Source: Patescibacteria group bacterium (GTDB taxonomy: Bacteria; Patescibacteriota; Patescibacteriia; JAACEG01). Taken from it: DNA of 32,193 nt. The position numbers were made by a program, and so were the translations under genes. Shown here one piece after another: positions 3,256 to 31,336 of this stretch. How positions within the stretch are numbered: the stretch's first letter is position 1; each line of letters opens with the position of its first letter. The stretch spans positions 1 to 32,193 of the forward strand of contig JAYEJQ010000073.1 in assembly GCA_034660735.1 (NCBI GenBank), written 5' to 3'. The notes below the pieces were generated by a model, which worked only from the letters and a program-made list of their open reading frames with translations, did not search any database and was not told the origin of the DNA.

Positions 3256-3347
3256 AATTCTTATTCTTAATTTTTATTTATTATAACTACAATTTAAGAG
3301 ATTTCTCGCCTATTGATTCAAAATGACAAAAAATAAGCATTTCTAAT

Positions 3348-4262: not shown

Positions 4263-4264
4263 AA

Positions 4265-4330
4265 TGTAAATTTACAATTACCAATTTGGCAATTATCAAT
4301 CAATTTCTAATTCTCTAATTTTCAATTATT
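4265..4330. repeat. Degenerate 7-mer tandem tract (YAATTWY)n
   Basis: CAATTAC CAATTTG GCAATTAT CAAT CAATTTC TAATTCT CTAATTT TCAATT. 4268-4287 is a 19/20 inverted match to 5568-5587. Confidence 0.65.
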
Positions 4331-4341
4331 TAAAATAAATT

Positions 4342-4380
4342 TGTCACCCCGCTGCTCGCGAGCGGCGGGGCAGAATGACA
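4342..4380. repeat. REP-like palindrome, type A (TGTCA...CCCCGCTGCTCGCGAGCRGCGGGG...GAATGACA)
   Basis: GC-rich 24-bp near-perfect palindrome at 4347-4370. Other copies at 1-13 (partial), 6625-6668, 10262-10306 and 28652-28695. Confidence 0.9.
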
Positions 4381-4436
4381 ATATTTTTTGGTATTATTTA
4401 ATCTAAAAAAACTATCACCACTCGCAAAGACAAAAA

Positions 4437-6594: not shown

Positions 6595-6624
6595 ATTAAA
6601 CTTTTTCTATTCTATATTAAATTT

Positions 6625-6668
6625 TGTCACCCTACCCCGCTGCTCGCGAGCGGCGGGGCGGAATGACA
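6625..6668. repeat. REP-like palindrome, type A
   Basis: TGTCACCCTA-CCCCGCTGCTCGCGAGCGGCGGGG-CGGAATGACA. Confidence 0.9.
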
Positions 6669-6698
6669 AATTTTTTATATAAATATATTTAATTAAAA

Positions 6699-7763
6699 TT
6701 ATTCTCCCGCCTTTTTTTCTAATAAAATAGTCTGGGTTGGAAACGCTATTTCAATCCCTTCTTGATTGAATTTCTCTATAATCTTTAAATTTATGCTTTG
6801 TTGCGTATCCATAAAAACAGTGTAATCGCCAGACAAAATATAATAAACAATTTGAAATGTTAAACTATAATCCCCAAAACTATTAAAATGGACCCTGCTA
6901 TATTCCGCGTTCTCTTGTTTCTCAATAATCTCTTTAATCATCTTTGGAATATTTTTTAACTTTTCAGGCGAAGTGCTATAACTTACTCCTATGTGGTGCA
7001 AATTTCGCCTCTTTTCCATAACTCCAAAATTTCTTATCTGCGATTTTGTTAATTCGCTGTTTGAAACAACAAGTTCTTCGCCTTGCGGAGTCTGAATTCT
7101 CGTTGTTTTAATTCCAATTTTTTTCACGCTTCCCATTTTGTCGCCTAAAACAATAAAATCTCCTACTTTAAACGGTTTGTCAAAATAGATTGAAAAAGAG
7201 CTAAAAAGATCGCCTAAAATATTTTGAAGCGCTAAAGCAACCGCAATTCCGCCAATTCCCATTCCAGCTATCAATGAACTAACATTTACGCCAAGATTAG
7301 AAAGAATAAACAAAAATCCAACTACCCAAAGAATTACTTTAAAAACGCCGCTTAACATTTGCGCCGCGGATTTTGTTGCTTCATCTTCTTCATCTCCCAT
7401 CTTTTTGCGGACAATATAATTTATTAAAATCTGAACAGCAATCATTATCTGATAAATCACCCAAACTAAAAGGGCTATATATAAAACTTTTGAGGCAATC
7501 TCGCTTAAAGTTAAAAATTGCAAAGCAAAATAAAAGGCTAAAAAAGAATAGAATGGCGGTTTCAGAGTATTCACAATTTCAATCAAAGTGTCGTCAATAT
7601 CTGTTTTGGTTTTTAGCGCTAATTTCTTTAATTTTTTTAAAATAATTGTCTGAAATAATTTTAGAATTATTAAAAACACGAAAAACGCAAAAATAGCGAT
7701 CAAAAAATCCTGAATAATATTTCCTAAAAATTCTACTTGTAAAAAATTTTGCTGATTATCCAT
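6699..7763 (-). CDS. mscS: Small-conductance mechanosensitive channel family protein
   Basis: AGMGIGGIAVALALQNILGDLFSS, DKPFKVGDFI, GSVKKIGIKTTRI, GIEIAFPTQ. Confidence 0.93.
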   Translation of the reverse strand: MDNQQNFLQVEFLGNIIQDFLIAIFAFFVFLIILKLFQTIILKKLKKLALKTKTDIDDTLIEIVNTLKPPFYSFLAFYFALQFLTLSEIASKVLYIALLVWVIYQIMIAVQILINYIVRKKMGDEEDEATKSAAQMLSGVFKVILWVVGFLFILSNLGVNVSSLIAGMGIGGIAVALALQNILGDLFSSFSIYFDKPFKVGDFIVLGDKMGSVKKIGIKTTRIQTPQGEELVVSNSELTKSQIRNFGVMEKRRNLHHIGVSYSTSPEKLKNIPKMIKEIIEKQENAEYSRVHFNSFGDYSLTFQIVYYILSGDYTVFMDTQQSINLKIIEKFNQEGIEIAFPTQTILLEKKAGE

Positions 7764-10226: not shown

Positions 10227-10261
10227 ATATGCTTATTTTGAATTATAAAATATAAAAATAC

Positions 10262-10306
10262 TGTCATTTCGACCCCGTCGCTCGCGAGCAGCGGGGCAGA
10301 ATGACA
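10262..10306. repeat. REP-like palindrome, type A, with degenerate outer arms (10237-10330)
   Basis: TGTCATTTCGA-CCCCGTCGCTCGCGAGCAGCGGGG-CAGAATGACA. 10297-10314 is the exact reverse complement of 30861-30878. Confidence 0.9.
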
Positions 10307-10339
10307 TGATTTTTTACTTTTCATAATTCATAGATAATT

Positions 10340-12128: not shown

Positions 12129-12734
12129 ATGGAACATCCAAAAAAAGAAAAAACTTTAGTCGTTATCAAACCAGACGGAATTCAAAGAACTTTAATAGGC
12201 GAAATCATTAAAAGATATGAAAAAATGGGCTTAAAATTAGTAGGTATAAAATTAATGAATCTTACAAAAAATTTTGTTGAAGAACACTACACACTTGATC
12301 CAGATTGGAAAAGAATAAACGGAGAAAAAACAATACAAGGATATAAAGATAAAGGATTACAACCTCCGTCCGAAGATCCATTAGAGGTTAATGCCGCGAC
12401 TTTAAAAAATTTAAAAATATACATGTCAAGCGGTCCTGTAGTGGCAATGATTTGGCAAGGAATGAATTCTGTAAAAATAGTAAGAAAAATCACAGGTGGA
12501 ACCGAGCCGCTAACTTCAGATGTCGGCACTATTCGCGGAGATCTTGTCTTGGATTCCTACCAAGTGTCAGACAATGACAACAGATCCATTAGAAATTTAA
12601 TCCACGCTTCTGGTTCTACGGAAGAAGCTGAAATGGAAATTAAGCATTGGTTTAATGACAATGAAATTATAGATTATAGATTAGTTCAAGAACAAATTTT
12701 ATACGATGTTAATTTAGACGGAATCAAGGAATAA
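12129..12734 (+). CDS. ndk: Nucleoside diphosphate kinase (long form)
   Basis: EKTLVVIKPDG, SGPVVAM, GTIRGD, RNLIHASGS (catalytic His). Has an internal insertion and a C-terminal extension. Confidence 0.95.
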   Translation: MEHPKKEKTLVVIKPDGIQRTLIGEIIKRYEKMGLKLVGIKLMNLTKNFVEEHYTLDPDWKRINGEKTIQGYKDKGLQPPSEDPLEVNAATLKNLKIYMSSGPVVAMIWQGMNSVKIVRKITGGTEPLTSDVGTIRGDLVLDSYQVSDNDNRSIRNLIHASGSTEEAEMEIKHWFNDNEIIDYRLVQEQILYDVNLDGIKE

Positions 12735-15227: not shown

Positions 15228-15339
15228 ATTTTATTTTAGAATTTATTCCCGAATTAAATTCAGGACAGGCTCTTTAGGATTTTATTTAAAATTTTATTTA
15301 AAATAAAACTCTAAAGGGTGAATTCCGTTTTATTTTTAA

Positions 15340-15485
15340 TAGACTTGTTGCGTAATAAATTTTGTAGCGCCCCGTAGGACTACGGGGTTAGGCAAATTTT
15401 TCATCCCCCCTCTCGCGAGAAGGGGGATGGAAAATTTGGCAAAAAGATTAAAATCGCAGTAGAAATTTATTACGCAACAAGTCTA
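15340..15485. mobile_element. 146-bp MITE-like element with perfect 23-bp terminal inverted repeats
   Basis: TAGACTTGTTGCGTAATAAATTT (15340-15362) and its exact reverse complement (15463-15485). TA at both ends, two internal GC hairpins, no ORF. Confidence 0.8.
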
Positions 15486-15489
15486 ATAT

Positions 15490-15714
15490 TTAAAAAATTT
15501 CTATTATCGCGTTCCAATTAATTTTCGCAATATTTAAAAAAGATACAATTAAAATCGCGAATGTTCCGATGCAAAACAATGCGACCATAAAATCACCGAA
15601 CAAATTCCTAAATCCAAAACGGAAAAGATGATAAAAACTAAAAAACACAAATATAAAAAATATTATTAAAAAAATAAAATATGGAAATAATAAAATTGAT
15701 AAAGAAAAAGACAT
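15490..15714 (-). CDS. Small 2-TM hypothetical membrane protein
   Basis: 74 aa, two hydrophobic helices flanking YHLFRFG. Its stop lies 4 nt from the MITE end. Confidence 0.7.
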   Translation of the reverse strand: MSFSLSILLFPYFIFLIIFFIFVFFSFYHLFRFGFRNLFGDFMVALFCIGTFAILIVSFLNIAKINWNAIIEIF

Positions 15715-16982: not shown

Positions 16983-16999
16983 TATTTTCTATTAAAATC

Positions 17000-17144
17000 T
17001 GTCACCCTGAATTTATTTCAGGGTCTGTGTCTGTTTTTAGCTATATTATAATTAAGAGCGACTAAACATAAATTCAAAACTTACTAATCTGATTATAATG
17101 TAGCGACAATCAATGACAGATCCTGAAATAAATTCAGGATGACA
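17000..17144. mobile_element. 145-bp non-autonomous palindromic element, type B, copy 1
   Basis: 29-bp TIRs (27/29): TGTCACCCTGAATTTATTTCAGGGTCTGT / ACAGATCCTGAAATAAATTCAGGATGACA. Each TIR is itself a hairpin. Homologous to 24487-24634. Confidence 0.8.
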
Positions 17145-24407: not shown

Positions 24408-24486
24408 CAATAATTATAATAAACATAATTACTTTAAATTGAGAAATACAAAATATTGTCATCTATATGGAAGCCGACTAATTCGT

Positions 24487-24634
24487 TGTCATCCCGAACT
24501 TATTTCTGGATCTGTGTTTGACTGCTAACTAAATATTATTTAACAAAACAAACTATAAAATTTAAAGTTTTATTAGTCTTAATCATAATGTAGCGAATAG
24601 TAGCGACAGATCCTGAACTAAATTCAGGATGATA
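24487..24634. mobile_element. 148-bp non-autonomous palindromic element, type B, copy 2, nested in outer arms 24431-24688
   Basis: TGTCATCCCGAACTTATTTCTGGATCTGT...ACAGATCCTGAACTAAATTCAGGATGATA. Shares internal ATAATGTAGCGA with 17000-17144. Confidence 0.78.
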
Positions 24635-24689
24635 ATTTTAAAAATTCGGAATAACAGGCTATTTTAGAGTAATGTTTCGTAATTCAAAA

Positions 24690-24822
24690 TCAAATAATCA
24701 AAAATATAAAAATACAAAAAACAAAAAAATCTCAAATCCCAATATTCAAATCTCAAATGGTTTGTTTTTTGGAATTTGTAATTTTGAATTTGTTTGTACC
24801 TTGTCTCTTGTTTCTTGTCTTT
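24690..24822. repeat. Inverted pair of 7-mer tandem tracts
   Basis: Left AAATCTC AAATCCC AATATTC AAATCTC; right TTGGAAT TTGTAAT TTTGAAT ... TTGTCTC TTGTTTC TTGTCTT. 24768-24792 is a 24/25 inverted match to 30990-31014. Confidence 0.75.
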
Positions 24823-26127: not shown

Positions 26128-28602
26128 TCATATAAAATTCAAATATTTTTTATCAATAAAATCTATAAAACAGCTTCTATTTATTGATTTGCCACTGTTG
26201 TCAAAATTACTATAAGAAATAAAAATTTTTTCTTTAGCCCGCGTCATCGCTACATAAAACAGCCGCTTTTCTTCCTCTATATCAGATTTATAAATCGGGA
26301 ACCTGTATTCATTCATACCGACAATAAAAACAAAATCAAACTCAAGCCCTTTTACCTGATGCGCGGTTACTATCGGAATTTTGCCGTTGTCCAATCCTAA
26401 AAAATCAATATCGCGATTCAGAGATCCGAAATTTATCAATTCTCTTAAAACTGTGTCCGACGGCTTGTTATTATTATCTTTTTGCTCAAAAACTTTAATA
26501 AGAGTATCTATTGATTTCGCTCTTCTATCTTTTTCAACATCTTGCTCGTAAAATTTTTTCAGTCCTGATTCTTCCCAGACCCGTTTTAAAAACTTTGACG
26601 GCCGCTCTTCTAATACTTTTTTCTCCCATGAATTTATCAACACGCTTAATTGGACGAATTTTTTGGAAAATTTTTTAAAAAGTTTATTTCTCTGTTTTTG
26701 TCCAACTTCTAATTTTTTAATTAAAATTCCTAAAAGTTCCGCTGTTGCCAGCACATCATCTTTCGCATCATGTGTCGCCTCTTTTAATTCTAACAATTCA
26801 GCTAAAGTCGTGAGTTTGTAATTTTCAGAATCAATCAAACGTCTTGAAAGGTCAAGCGTATCGTAATATTCCTTAAATTCAAAATCTATCTCTCTCCGTT
26901 TTGAATTTTCAACAATCATTGAAAGGTCAAAATTGATATTATGCCCAACAACAATATCTCCGTTAATAAATTCTTTCAATTCCATTAAAACATCTTTTGA
27001 ATTCCGTCCGCTCTTTTGCAAAAATTCATCAGTAATTCCGTGAATTTCATAAGAGCCTCCGACTGGAATGCTGTTTTTGAGATAAAAATGAAAATCTTTT
27101 CCTGACTTTCCGTTAATCAATTCAATGGCATAAATTTGGATAATATCGTCTCTTAAAACATTAACTCCTGTTGTTTCAGTGTCTAAAACAATAATCCTCC
27201 CCTTATTCCATTTATCAGTCAAATTAAAAAACGGCTCGGGAAAATTATAATTCTTAAAATTAAGAAAATCAGAAATTTTCAAGCCAGATTTATTTCCTTG
27301 TTCCATAATAGTTTTCATAGTATCCGCGCTGATATTTCTTGATTGGCGCAAAATCAACCTGTGAGCGCTTTTTAAGTCAAATTTATTAAAAATAATTTTT
27401 AGATAAGCGTAAATATCTTTAATCTCTTGACGGCGAAAAAAATTATATTTGTCAACAGTAATGTGGGCAATTTTTTTTTGCGTAAAAATATCAGCAATGT
27501 TGCTGATTAAATAATTAGCGCGGCTTAAAATCGCTATTTTCGCGATAGAATTATCAGTTCGTATATTTTTAATATTTTGAATTACCCAGCTTATCTCTTC
27601 ATTAAAATTAGTTCCGCCAAAAACATCAATGCATTGCAAACTCTTTTCCTTATTTGATCCGCCGCTTATCATCTCTTCTGTATGCGCGCTGTCAAAACTT
27701 TTTAAAAAAGATTTAATGGCTTCAAGATTATTTTGATTAAAGCGATAATTTACTTTTAAGCGCATTTCTCTAACTGGAGCGAAATGAGTTTTAAAAATTT
27801 TAGCGATTTTATAAGGCTCAGAACCTCGCCAACCGTAGATTGTCTGATCTAAATCGCCGATAAAAGATATATTTTTATGCGTCTTTGCTAATTCTTTTAC
27901 AACTAAATATTCCGCTATATGAGTATCCTGAAACTCGTCCAACTGGATAAATTTATATCTTAGCGCCCATCTATTTCTTAATTTTTTATCTAAATACAGG
28001 CTTTTAATCGTTAAAATTACCAGCTCATTAAAATCAAGAGCATTTTGATTTTTTAAAACATTAAAATATTTCTCGCTGATTTTAATAAATGTTTTGCTGA
28101 TTTTTATATCCTCAATTTTATGCCCCAGCTGTTTTCTTAAGTTATTTAGCCGATATTGGTATATCCGTTTTATTAAATCCAAAATTTCATAACGGGTGTT
28201 TTGAGACCCGACCGCGAATCCTTGATAATTATAATCCGCTAAAATATTCTTCATTATTTCCAATTGCTCAATTTCATCAAAGATAACAAAATCTGAATTT
28301 ACTCCAATTCTTTTCGCTTCACTTTTCACAAAATAGGAACAAAATCCATGAAATGTGCTTATAGTTAAACTGTTAATCGCGTCTCTGTCCTTAATCCTTT
28401 TTTTTATTCTCTGCGATATTTCTTCCGCAGAACGATTCGTAAAAGTAAGGCATAATATCTCGTCTGGCTTAATTCCAGATTCTAAAGCTTTTATAATTCT
28501 TTCTATTAAAACCGTTGTTTTTCCTGTTCCGACTGGAGCCGAAACCAAATAAGCGCCGAATATATTGTTAATAATTTCCTGCTGTTCCTTGTTAAAATTC
28601 AT
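26128..28602 (-). CDS. UvrD/PcrA-type SF1 helicase with inserted DEDDh 3'-5' exonuclease domain
   Basis: APVGTGKT, LTFTNR, STFHG, LDEFQDT, GDLDQTIYGWRG, TAHQVKGLEFD, EEKRLFYVAMTRAK. Insert has VLDTETTG, VGHNINFD and HDAKDDV. Confidence 0.9.
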   Translation of the reverse strand: MNFNKEQQEIINNIFGAYLVSAPVGTGKTTVLIERIIKALESGIKPDEILCLTFTNRSAEEISQRIKKRIKDRDAINSLTISTFHGFCSYFVKSEAKRIGVNSDFVIFDEIEQLEIMKNILADYNYQGFAVGSQNTRYEILDLIKRIYQYRLNNLRKQLGHKIEDIKISKTFIKISEKYFNVLKNQNALDFNELVILTIKSLYLDKKLRNRWALRYKFIQLDEFQDTHIAEYLVVKELAKTHKNISFIGDLDQTIYGWRGSEPYKIAKIFKTHFAPVREMRLKVNYRFNQNNLEAIKSFLKSFDSAHTEEMISGGSNKEKSLQCIDVFGGTNFNEEISWVIQNIKNIRTDNSIAKIAILSRANYLISNIADIFTQKKIAHITVDKYNFFRRQEIKDIYAYLKIIFNKFDLKSAHRLILRQSRNISADTMKTIMEQGNKSGLKISDFLNFKNYNFPEPFFNLTDKWNKGRIIVLDTETTGVNVLRDDIIQIYAIELINGKSGKDFHFYLKNSIPVGGSYEIHGITDEFLQKSGRNSKDVLMELKEFINGDIVVGHNINFDLSMIVENSKRREIDFEFKEYYDTLDLSRRLIDSENYKLTTLAELLELKEATHDAKDDVLATAELLGILIKKLEVGQKQRNKLFKKFSKKFVQLSVLINSWEKKVLEERPSKFLKRVWEESGLKKFYEQDVEKDRRAKSIDTLIKVFEQKDNNNKPSDTVLRELINFGSLNRDIDFLGLDNGKIPIVTAHQVKGLEFDFVFIVGMNEYRFPIYKSDIEEEKRLFYVAMTRAKEKIFISYSNFDNSGKSINRSCFIDFIDKKYLNFI

Positions 28603-28651
28603 AATGCAAAAATTAAAATAATTTCTATAAATTACGAAATATATAAAATGC

Positions 28652-28695
28652 TATCACTCTGCCCCGCTGCTCGCGAGCAGCGGGGCAGGATGACA
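28652..28695. repeat. REP-like palindrome, type A
   Basis: Perfect 30-bp palindrome CTGCCCCGCTGCTCGCGAGCAGCGGGGCAG (28659-28688) then GATGACA. Preceded by outer arm TAAATTACGAAATATA (28628-28643). Confidence 0.92.
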
Positions 28696-28705
28696 ATAGT
28701 AAACA

Positions 28706-30729: not shown

Positions 30730-30761
30730 AAAATATTTTATTATTTAATTATTTTATTTTA

Positions 30762-30789
30762 ATTATACCAAACAGCAAATTAGTGTCAA
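30762..30789 (-). promoter_or_regulatory. Consensus sigma70 promoter for the Memo-like/fmt operon
   Basis: Minus strand TTGACA (30789-30784), 16 nt, TGgTATAAT (hexamer 30767-30762). Confidence 0.8.
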
Positions 30790-30841
30790 TGAAAGATAGC
30801 AGTTAGTAAATAGTAATTAGCAACTAATAAAAAAATCAATA

Positions 30842-31156
30842 ACTTTAAATTACGAAATATAAAAATCATGTCATTCTGAGCGACCATCGGGAGCGAAGAA
30901 TCTGCTTTAATGCCAGTTAGATTATTTTAAAATCATTTAATCGCTGAATTTAAGGCATTATTAAATTATCTTAAACAAATTTTAAATTCCAAATCCAAAA
31001 TTACAAATTCCAAATAAATTACAAATTCAAATTTTCAAATTCCAAAAATAAGTTAGAAGGATACAAGATATCACCCTTACGGGTGATCACCCGCGAGGCG
31101 TGGCTTCGGCTATCGCCTCAGAATGACAAAATTTTTTGTGTTTCGTAATTCAAAGT
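30842..31156. mobile_element. 315-bp composite palindromic element, type C (most complete family member)
   Basis: Outer inverted repeat 21/24 (30842-30865 / 31133-31156). Inner perfect 12-bp IR TGTCATTCTGAG / CTCAGAATGACA (30869-30880 / 31117-31128). Contains a 7-mer tract (30984-31046) and hairpin ATCACCC-TTAC-GGGTGAT. Confidence 0.75.
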
Positions 31157-31176
31157 AATAAAAAAATTAATAAAAA

Positions 31177-31217
31177 TTTTTAGCAAAATGCGCGATCGCG
31201 TAAAATGCTAAAAAAAA
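31177..31217. terminator. Hairpin, possible terminator downstream of the surface-protein gene
   Basis: TTTTTAGCA-AAA-TGCGCGATCGCGTA-AAA-TGCTAAAAA interrupted stem. Confidence 0.4.
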
Positions 31218-31218
31218 G

Positions 31219-31254
31219 AAATACCTATTTAAATAGGTATTTAAATAGGTATTT
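31219..31254. repeat. 24-bp perfect palindrome with a duplicated right arm
   Basis: AAATACCTATTT / AAATAGGTATTT / AAATAGGTATTT. Confidence 0.85.
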
Positions 31255-31336
31255 AATTTTTAAAAAATTATTCTAAATTATTTACGCTTTATTTAATCTA
31301 TTTTTAAAGTAATTTAAAAAGCATAAAATTTGACAT

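Follow-up and report, generated by a model that had tools for sequence, protein, structure and literature searches.

The intergenic repeats of contig JAYEJQ010000073.1 from a Patescibacteria group bacterium are probably hairpin repeats of the SRM class, the class related to Ssn nucleases, carried by a genome in which the nuclease gene itself was not found. This contig of 32,193 nt, referred to throughout as the window, bears the number C73 in an assembly of 815,712 bp (GCA_034660735.1, denoted G000; 77 contigs, 31.5% G+C, 94% complete). Comparisons were made with G001 and G002, two genomes of the same genus, with the family to which they belong (G000 to G007, G007 being of another genus), with 41 relatives in which outer arms were sought, and with sets of 401 genomes and 301 genera of the class; genome sizes of the relatives are 0.6 - 1.6 Mb. 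A preliminary description of the window had held that repeats resembling separate families are built on one common chassis (outer arm, inner TGTCAY, variable hairpin, RTGACA, inverted outer arm) and are spread by something that the window does not encode. In both respects it proved right.

For a genome-wide census, family ends were defined by a search for TGTYAYYYYR and kept if they had 11-mers in common with other sites (repeat-supported). The 816 kb contain 263 such sites, of which 133, in 73 clusters, are repeat-supported; all 133 begin with TGTYAY by construction of the search, and TGTCAYYCYG occurs 123 times in the genome. The repeats take the form of 29-45 nt singlets, with one hairpin between TGTCA and TGACA, of 145-165 nt doublets, and of composites framed by arms. 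The inverted doublet is the commonest complete form and consists of TGTCAY, a hairpin, CTGTG/C, a conserved core of ~90 nt, and the mirror image of these; in 26 clusters, the inverted ends are separated by more than 100 nt, and at C45:548-832 one doublet is inserted within another. Hairpin typing was approximate, as only the longest stem was kept: the AT-looped hairpin B was counted 28 times by a strict rule, with ~17 further B-type ends lumped as 'other', and the 24-nt GC palindrome 35 times directly after TGTCAY and 13 times inside an AYYCYG..CRGRRT stem, where it replaces the loop. Rarer hairpins under the same approximate typing are GTAGT (3), C1 (5) and C2-like (~8). Hairpin B, the GC palindrome and the GTAGT hairpin are each followed by CTGTG or CTGTC, so that different hairpins occupy the same frame: the hairpin tip varies, and TGTCAY, stem base and the following CTGTG/C are constant. 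Recognition may accordingly need the flank and the stem base alone. The preliminary description had cast the outer arm as the conserved, recognised part; the widely shared part is instead the TGTCAY end with the hairpin base, and an arm lies within 75 nt of only 27 of the 133 ends.

The distribution of the end extends far beyond that of the element. The full 145-nt doublet was found within the genus only (G002, 77-80% identity), while its terminal 25-27 nt are 100% identical in other families of the class, with matches in 39 of 301 genomes at E ≤ 1e-5. As the pattern TGTCAYCCTGAAWTWRWTTCAGGRT, in which the Y and R of the stem base co-vary, the 25-mer is present in 36 of 401 genomes and 32 of 301 genera, and the reversed control gave 0 everywhere. 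The exact 25-mer also turned up in named records of many phyla, at least 120 stretches in all, the closest outside matches among those listed being titled Parcubacteria. Outside the genus it is usually paired, 5-40 variable bases on, with a second, inverted hairpin ending in ..CATGACA. The 25-nt B hairpin also occurs exactly in 13 stretches of predicted viral contigs from IMG/VR (L265-L277), with up to three copies per stretch; such contigs are a possible vehicle of spread between hosts.

When the open reading frames (ORFs) within 1.5 kb of the hairpin were clustered (n = 696), the largest cluster was a small GIY-YIG protein (8 ORFs, at 6 of 120 loci), encoded 0-106 nt from a B hairpin and 53-60% identical to a 94-aa ORF of G004. 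In G004 this Ssn-like gene lies among TGTCAT hairpins on both sides, and homologues of the ORF are present in 233 of the 401 genomes of the class. At the best 30 Ssn-like loci, GTC plus a hairpin in the expected orientation was found within 150 nt in 28 of 30 cases, as against 6 of 30 control windows; 22 loci have the hairpin upstream, 21 downstream and 15 on both sides. The exact 24-nt core of the published NTS of Neisseria is found in 3 and the published SRM string in 9 of these 30 loci, and these matches tie the protein group to the published Ssn family. The protein is encoded by 30 of 36 genomes with the hairpin and by 203 of 365 without it, a tally over related genomes that are not independent. 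The GIY-YIG proteins are thus the item on the preliminary description's list of candidate enzymes to which the evidence leads; its analogy with RAYT, the transposase of repetitive extragenic palindromic (REP) sequences, fails on the enzyme.

Two further kinds of GIY-YIG locus were noticed alongside. A record from Mesonia sediminis (L130 3666-4868) contains three tandem 423-nt units, each with a 108-aa Ssn-like ORF followed by a B hairpin 8 nt on. Small GIY-YIG ORFs of another subtype lie between tRNA genes (L192, L196 and L197 in G001 and G002; L194 in G004:C136), and one ORF of this other subtype lies inside a 16S rRNA gene, in the manner of a free-standing or intron homing endonuclease.

The system to which these ends were compared is that of Neisseria, where, according to the main text of Chenal et al. 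(2025, Nat Commun 16:2388, PMC11893778), the NTS is CGTCATTCCCGCGMAVGCGGGAATCYRG, and SsnA, a GIY-YIG protein of 94 aa and a single domain, binds the NTS exclusively as single-stranded DNA (ssDNA) and cuts upstream of it. The same text reports binding and cleavage of ssDNA for four homologues and a nearby SRM for 71% of ssnA homologues, and it terms the NTS-ssnA-NTS layout IS-like as a hypothesis, raising its mobility there as an untested point. Common to the published NTS/dRS3/SRM-SsnA system and the repeats described here are an oriented GTCAY flank directly before a hairpin of 20-50 nt, hundreds of intergenic copies, a cross-phylum distribution and, in relatives of G000, inverted copies that bracket a gene for a nuclease of ~94 aa. 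In contrast to published SRMs, these hairpins are either AT-rich or built as long GC palindromes, the doublets have a conserved core of ~90 nt and are in part framed by a family-specific arm pair, and no ssn gene was found in G000. The text of PMC11893778 makes no mention of Patescibacteria, candidate phyla or miniature inverted-repeat transposable elements (MITEs), although its Supplementary Data 3-5 may list further genomes or variants. Literature searches with 15-17-mers of the hairpins matched no paper of the library searched, and those for such repeats in the candidate phyla radiation or Patescibacteria returned nothing; one later preprint, as far as its accessible part goes, uses SsnA repeats only as a benchmark.

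Each end is a short oriented flank, (T)GTCAY, with the hairpin following at once; by analogy with SsnA, it would in ssDNA form the binding site of a small single-domain Ssn nuclease that cuts just upstream. The ends take three forms, namely singlets, inverted doublets, and singlets or doublets inside an inverted arm pair specific to the lineage (TAATTACYTTGAATTACGAAA); the doublets apparently derive from hairpin-ssn-hairpin units like those of relatives, with the ORF lost. The analysis itself demonstrates the anatomy, the copy census, the identity of the end across phyla, its association with nuclease genes in other genomes and the polymorphism between relatives; cleavage, the way of spreading and the function of the arms are inferred. 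An arm-framed unit is gained or lost as a whole; arms-only copies, which bear TGTCAT half-sites without hairpins, may be favoured insertion sites for doublets, and the resulting composites would then spread.

The preliminary description had looked to close relatives for presence/absence polymorphism, and it is there, with orthologous gaps empty, filled, or filled differently. In G002, the gaps corresponding to window 10227-10339 (16 nt vs 110 nt), 24408-24793 (2 nt vs ~410) and 30730-31336 (~10 nt vs ~547) are empty, as is that of 28603-28705 in both G001 and G002 (0 nt). On other contigs, C28:7970-8183 is empty in both of these genomes, C56:7620-7786 is empty in G002, where the two tRNA genes lie 15 nt apart, and the C7 doublet is absent from both. 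Where an arm-bearing locus has an empty orthologue, the arms are missing too (6 of 6 loci). One gap exists in three states: it is empty in G002 (2 nt), holds arms only in G001 (C120 ~12280-12340), and holds arms plus a B doublet in G000 (24431-24693); the arms-only copy of G001 equals the full element of G001 and G002 minus its TGTCAT..ATGACA doublet. Other gaps are filled differently. Those orthologous to 4263-4436 and 16983-17138 hold another repeat family in G002, G001 is without the singlet in the 4342-4380 gap, at 6595-6698 G002 has a different doublet, of the TGTCTTTGCGAG type, and one gap of contig C67 holds three different doublets in three species. The other family of G002 is a repeat of ~150 nt with inverted ends (GGCTCCATAGTCC..GGACTATGGAGCC), which also adjoins the IS200-like gene of that genome (L066 2040-2200).

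The outer arm matches at five places in the window with up to 3 mismatches (30842 and, inverted, 31133, as well as 28624, 24431 and 10235 on the plus strand), where 100 shuffles gave 0.01 on average. The genome as a whole has 20 matches, 19 of which are followed by a TGTYAY end within 40 nt by a reading of the flanks. The arm core TGAATTAYRAAA occurs 44 times, with ~4 estimated from base composition; in 26 cases a family end follows within 60 nt and in 18 it does not, so that the arms occur in part independently of the TGTCA elements, an outcome the preliminary description had counted against itself. Nine of the 10 arm pairs of G000 surround family ends, and one is empty (C71:7407-7442). Among the 41 relatives searched, an arm with TGTYAY is present in 6 of the 7 other genomes of the family and rare beyond; the arms are confined, with few exceptions, to one bacterial family, and the hairpin end extends across phyla. 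In G007 these arms abut TGTCAT and the doublet inside them has another hairpin; upstream of the hairpins that cluster beside its ssn gene, this genome has an arm as well. In G001 and G002, arms frame further doublets, one of them almost the Neisseria NTS. Constant arms around different hairpin types, as previously described, are therefore seen both within the genus and in another genus. We read the arms as the terminal parts of an outer element that is specific to the lineage, bears such doublets and can also occur without any.

Other arm words were observed as well. Window 15328-15497 contains two GC hairpins without TGTCA between inverted arms of a second kind (35 nt, 86% complementary); the word of these arms adjoins TGTCAT ends at C71:35117 and C27:10483, and the ends at C7:2828 and C68:4948 adjoin a third such word (..TTTACGAGTTGCGCTAATTAAACAT).

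Several points weigh against the assignment to the SRM class. A hydrolytic GIY-YIG nuclease is not known to perform strand-transfer chemistry. The published degenerate SRM string, which does match the canonical NTS on a check by hand, was found 0 times in the genome and at 0 of the 133 ends (mean of shuffles 0.2). An unrelated TTTTGATTTTTG satellite accounts for five of the 133 ends, and the C1 end, with a DNA fold of -3.5 kcal/mol and z 0.30, folds no better than shuffles. The G004 protein is a putative member of the Ssn family, placed there by its size, its Pfam GIY-YIG match (E 1.5e-19) and its flanking motifs; NCBIfam has no specific model for the ORF, with a group I intron endonuclease model below threshold (25 bits, cut-off 56), and a PDB sequence search gave no relative. 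A Ssn-like gene was found in neither G000 nor G001, and that of G002 has an in-frame TAG. In G000, tblastn gave only a GIY-YIG of a different subtype on contig C59 (29-36% identity, E ~1e-3); this ORF, C59:2548-2751, is the only GIY-YIG match of the genome and has no TGTCA hairpins beside it.

The preliminary description had noted no mobilising enzyme in the window, and the whole of G000 likewise yielded neither an Ssn-like gene (cd10448-type GIY-YIG, ~94 aa) nor a match over cut-off to the seven transposase families searched (PF01797, PF07282, PF00665, PF01609, PF13358, PF00872, PF01548). Between end pairs 1-2 kb apart there are only housekeeping ORFs (thrS, infC-like and others), and no element enzyme or autonomous copy. 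The absence of an Ssn gene from G000 is not secure in a 94% complete assembly of 77 contigs, many of whose ends carry these very repeats. With no such gene in the assembly, the copies would be relics, or a nuclease provided from outside or encoded in unassembled DNA would drive them.

A two-layer mobile system is a tentative elaboration that we consider rather unlikely. In it, a short arm-bounded element with TGTCAT half-sites that lack hairpins would serve as a dock at which Ssn doublets of various types are inserted, lost or exchanged, and the loaded composite would move as a whole.

The landing pad with cassette exchange proposed by the preliminary description, in which the arm pair stays at its locus and is recognised while the interior is swapped, is doubtful. 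It draws on the three-state gap, on the arms-only copy that equals a full element without its doublet, on the gap with three different doublets, and on the fact that at least six hairpin types in the genus, and one more in G007, are enclosed by the same arms. However, the arms are not a resident landing pad at the six arm-bearing loci with an empty orthologue, since they are missing there together with the interior, and most ends are without them. The three-state series is a single locus at which the arms of G000 are decayed (3 mismatches), and a direct repeat, AAAYGACA, flanks the arms-only boundary, so that a simple deletion would yield the same state. A small number of permissive gaps in compact genomes would likewise account for repeated use of one gap. 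'Constant arms, interchangeable hairpins' is thus right as a description; exchange at a fixed landing pad is a minority possibility that draws on one three-state locus.

It is similarly improbable, and by our estimate slightly more so, that the repeats are ordinary MITEs of a DDE transposase, with the TGTCA..TGACA ends or the arms as terminal inverted repeats and the likeness to SRMs coincidental. Bacterial MITEs, of which the Correia elements of Neisseria are an example, resemble the repeats in a size of 100-300 nt, inverted termini, intergenic position and presence or absence between close relatives. At C28, moreover, the arm-to-arm unit is an indel with TAATTAT on both sides in G000 and a single TAATTAT in both empty genomes, as in a target duplication; the word overlaps the conserved outer arm consensus, which makes this one hint ambiguous. 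No duplication was evident at the other copies compared, including arm-less ones, whose flanks are too diverged for exact boundaries. Further against a MITE, no match over cut-off was obtained in G000, G001 or G002 for the five DDE/DEDD families (PF01609, PF13358, PF00872, PF01548, PF00665) or for TnpB, and the termini are hairpins common to the flanks of Ssn genes across phyla.

Host-selected structural hairpins, for instance bidirectional intrinsic terminators rather than mobile DNA, are highly improbable. All nine window loci lie between ORFs, and in several copies a GC-rich stem is preceded by an A-run and followed by a T-run. A terminator scan, however, flags only one of the nine (24610-24630), although its rule of a 3-8 nt loop would miss loopless palindromes; the elements are missing from orthologous gaps of close relatives; local selection would not be expected to yield the identical 25-mer in different phyla; and no Rfam family was matched in the window at gathering score.

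A REP/REPIN system spread by a RAYT (Y1 HUH) transposase is largely refuted: hairpin formation, pairing as inverted doublets, spread in trans and repeats on either side of the enzyme's gene are features in common with REPINs, and the IS200-like Y1_Tnp gene of G002 (PF01797, E 1e-33; G002:C8, L066 1414-1920) is flanked by the same CCCCGCCAGCTTGCTGCGGGG hairpin on both sides, but these hairpins are without a TGTCA flank, the family is absent from G000 and only partially matched in G001, no Y1 cluster was found among the ORFs near the hairpin at 120 loci, REPs carry a GTAG flank where the repeats here have TGTCAY, and the associated enzyme here is a GIY-YIG.

Returning to the window, the type C element described at 30842-31156 was borne out. 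Its left outer arm (ACTTTAAATTACGAAA plus an A-rich spacer, 30842-30865, plus strand) has 0 mismatches to the arm pattern, as has the inverted partner at 31133-31156 (minus strand). Inside these lie a left SRM-like end of type C1 (TGTCATTCTGAGCG..AAGAATC, 30869-30905, plus strand), one of the 5 genome-wide copies, an AT-rich interior with a tract of 7-mers (30906-31061), and a right SRM-like end of type C2 (TGTCATTCTGAGGCGATAGCC.. as read on the minus strand, 31062-31128) with two hairpins. Only the right end folds well (-14.1 kcal/mol, z -3.0), and the left 'hairpin' that had been described is the C1 end whose fold does not exceed shuffles. In a four-copy alignment, the element corresponds to the 167-nt copy at C56:7620-7786, where the C2 end recurs at 7648, plus ~150 nt of extra interior including the 7-mer tract. 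This tract is common to contig C66 and resembles window 24741-24792. The 7-mer-like units (AAATTCC / CAAATCC / AAATTAC) form an AT-rich satellite at window 30975-31045 and 24741-24792 and at C66:1250-1800, recurring near gene starts as well as inside the type C element.

The exact cross-links by which the window's elements had been joined are all true: 28628-28643 equals 30846-30861 and 24673-24688 equals 31139-31154 (16 nt each), and 10297-10314 is the reverse complement of 30861-30878. Of the five GC-palindrome copies counted before (type A), four are CCCCGC..GCGGGG palindromes; CTCGCGAG is seen 5 times against 0.14 expected, the fifth being a different palindrome (~15400-15431) between different arms and without TGTCA. 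The four are a singlet (10262-10306) between two arms at 10235-10333, a unit that is absent as a whole in G002; a copy at 28624-28695 with a left arm, no right arm, and a left TGTCA decayed to TATCA; a singlet between TGTCA and TGACA at 4342-4380; and a singlet at 6625-6668. Folds of GC palindromes gave z -2.35 and, for the 28624 copy, -5.45; that of the B hairpin gave z -4.28.

The two type B copies stood. At 24431-24693, a decayed arm and a half-site precede the doublet (24487-24635), and a half-site and an arm follow it; the doublet at 17000-17144 (TGTCAYCCTGAA-loop-TTCAGGRT at both ends, ~90-nt core) is without arms and 94% identical to C7:2684-2828. The supposed type B half at 15248-15265 is weak, a lone CCCGAA..TTCAGG hairpin without TGTCA. 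The decayed right half noted at 3299-3328 (minus strand) is the right end of a TGTCATTTCGA-type doublet, found complete between arms in G001 and G002.

The window encodes the housekeeping genes cysS, lepA, gatB, fmt and a UvrD-like helicase (26128-28602), in which an RNase_T exonuclease domain is inserted within the C-terminal domain (residues 471-624); a scan for tRNA and tmRNA genes found none. Upstream of a LigB-like gene, on the minus strand at 30762-30789, is a perfect sigma-70-type promoter (TTGACA, 16 nt, TG, TATAAT; 12/12), the TTGACA part of which is kept in G001 and G002. At 31178-31218 lies a GCGATCGC-centred hairpin flanked by A/T-rich runs, which resembles a terminator in either direction; GCGATCGC occurs 50 times in the genome, counting both strands.

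Since the hairpins escape the published search string, the SRM class is probably wider than reported and includes very small genomes. For a 25-nt hairpin to be identical across many phyla, either its horizontal spread must be very wide or its recognition very tight, and either cause would be informative on the Ssn nucleases, enzymes that attract interest as ssDNA tools. The empty sites, the doublets without an ORF and the arms-only state make the mobility of hairpin-ssn-hairpin units testable by comparison. If the two-layer system were true, the three-state series, the at least seven hairpin types in two genera and the gap with three doublets would be the first comparative evidence for it, Ssn hairpin units would be transposable cassettes with a preferred dock, and prokaryotic mobile DNA would include a new class driven by GIY-YIG nucleases.

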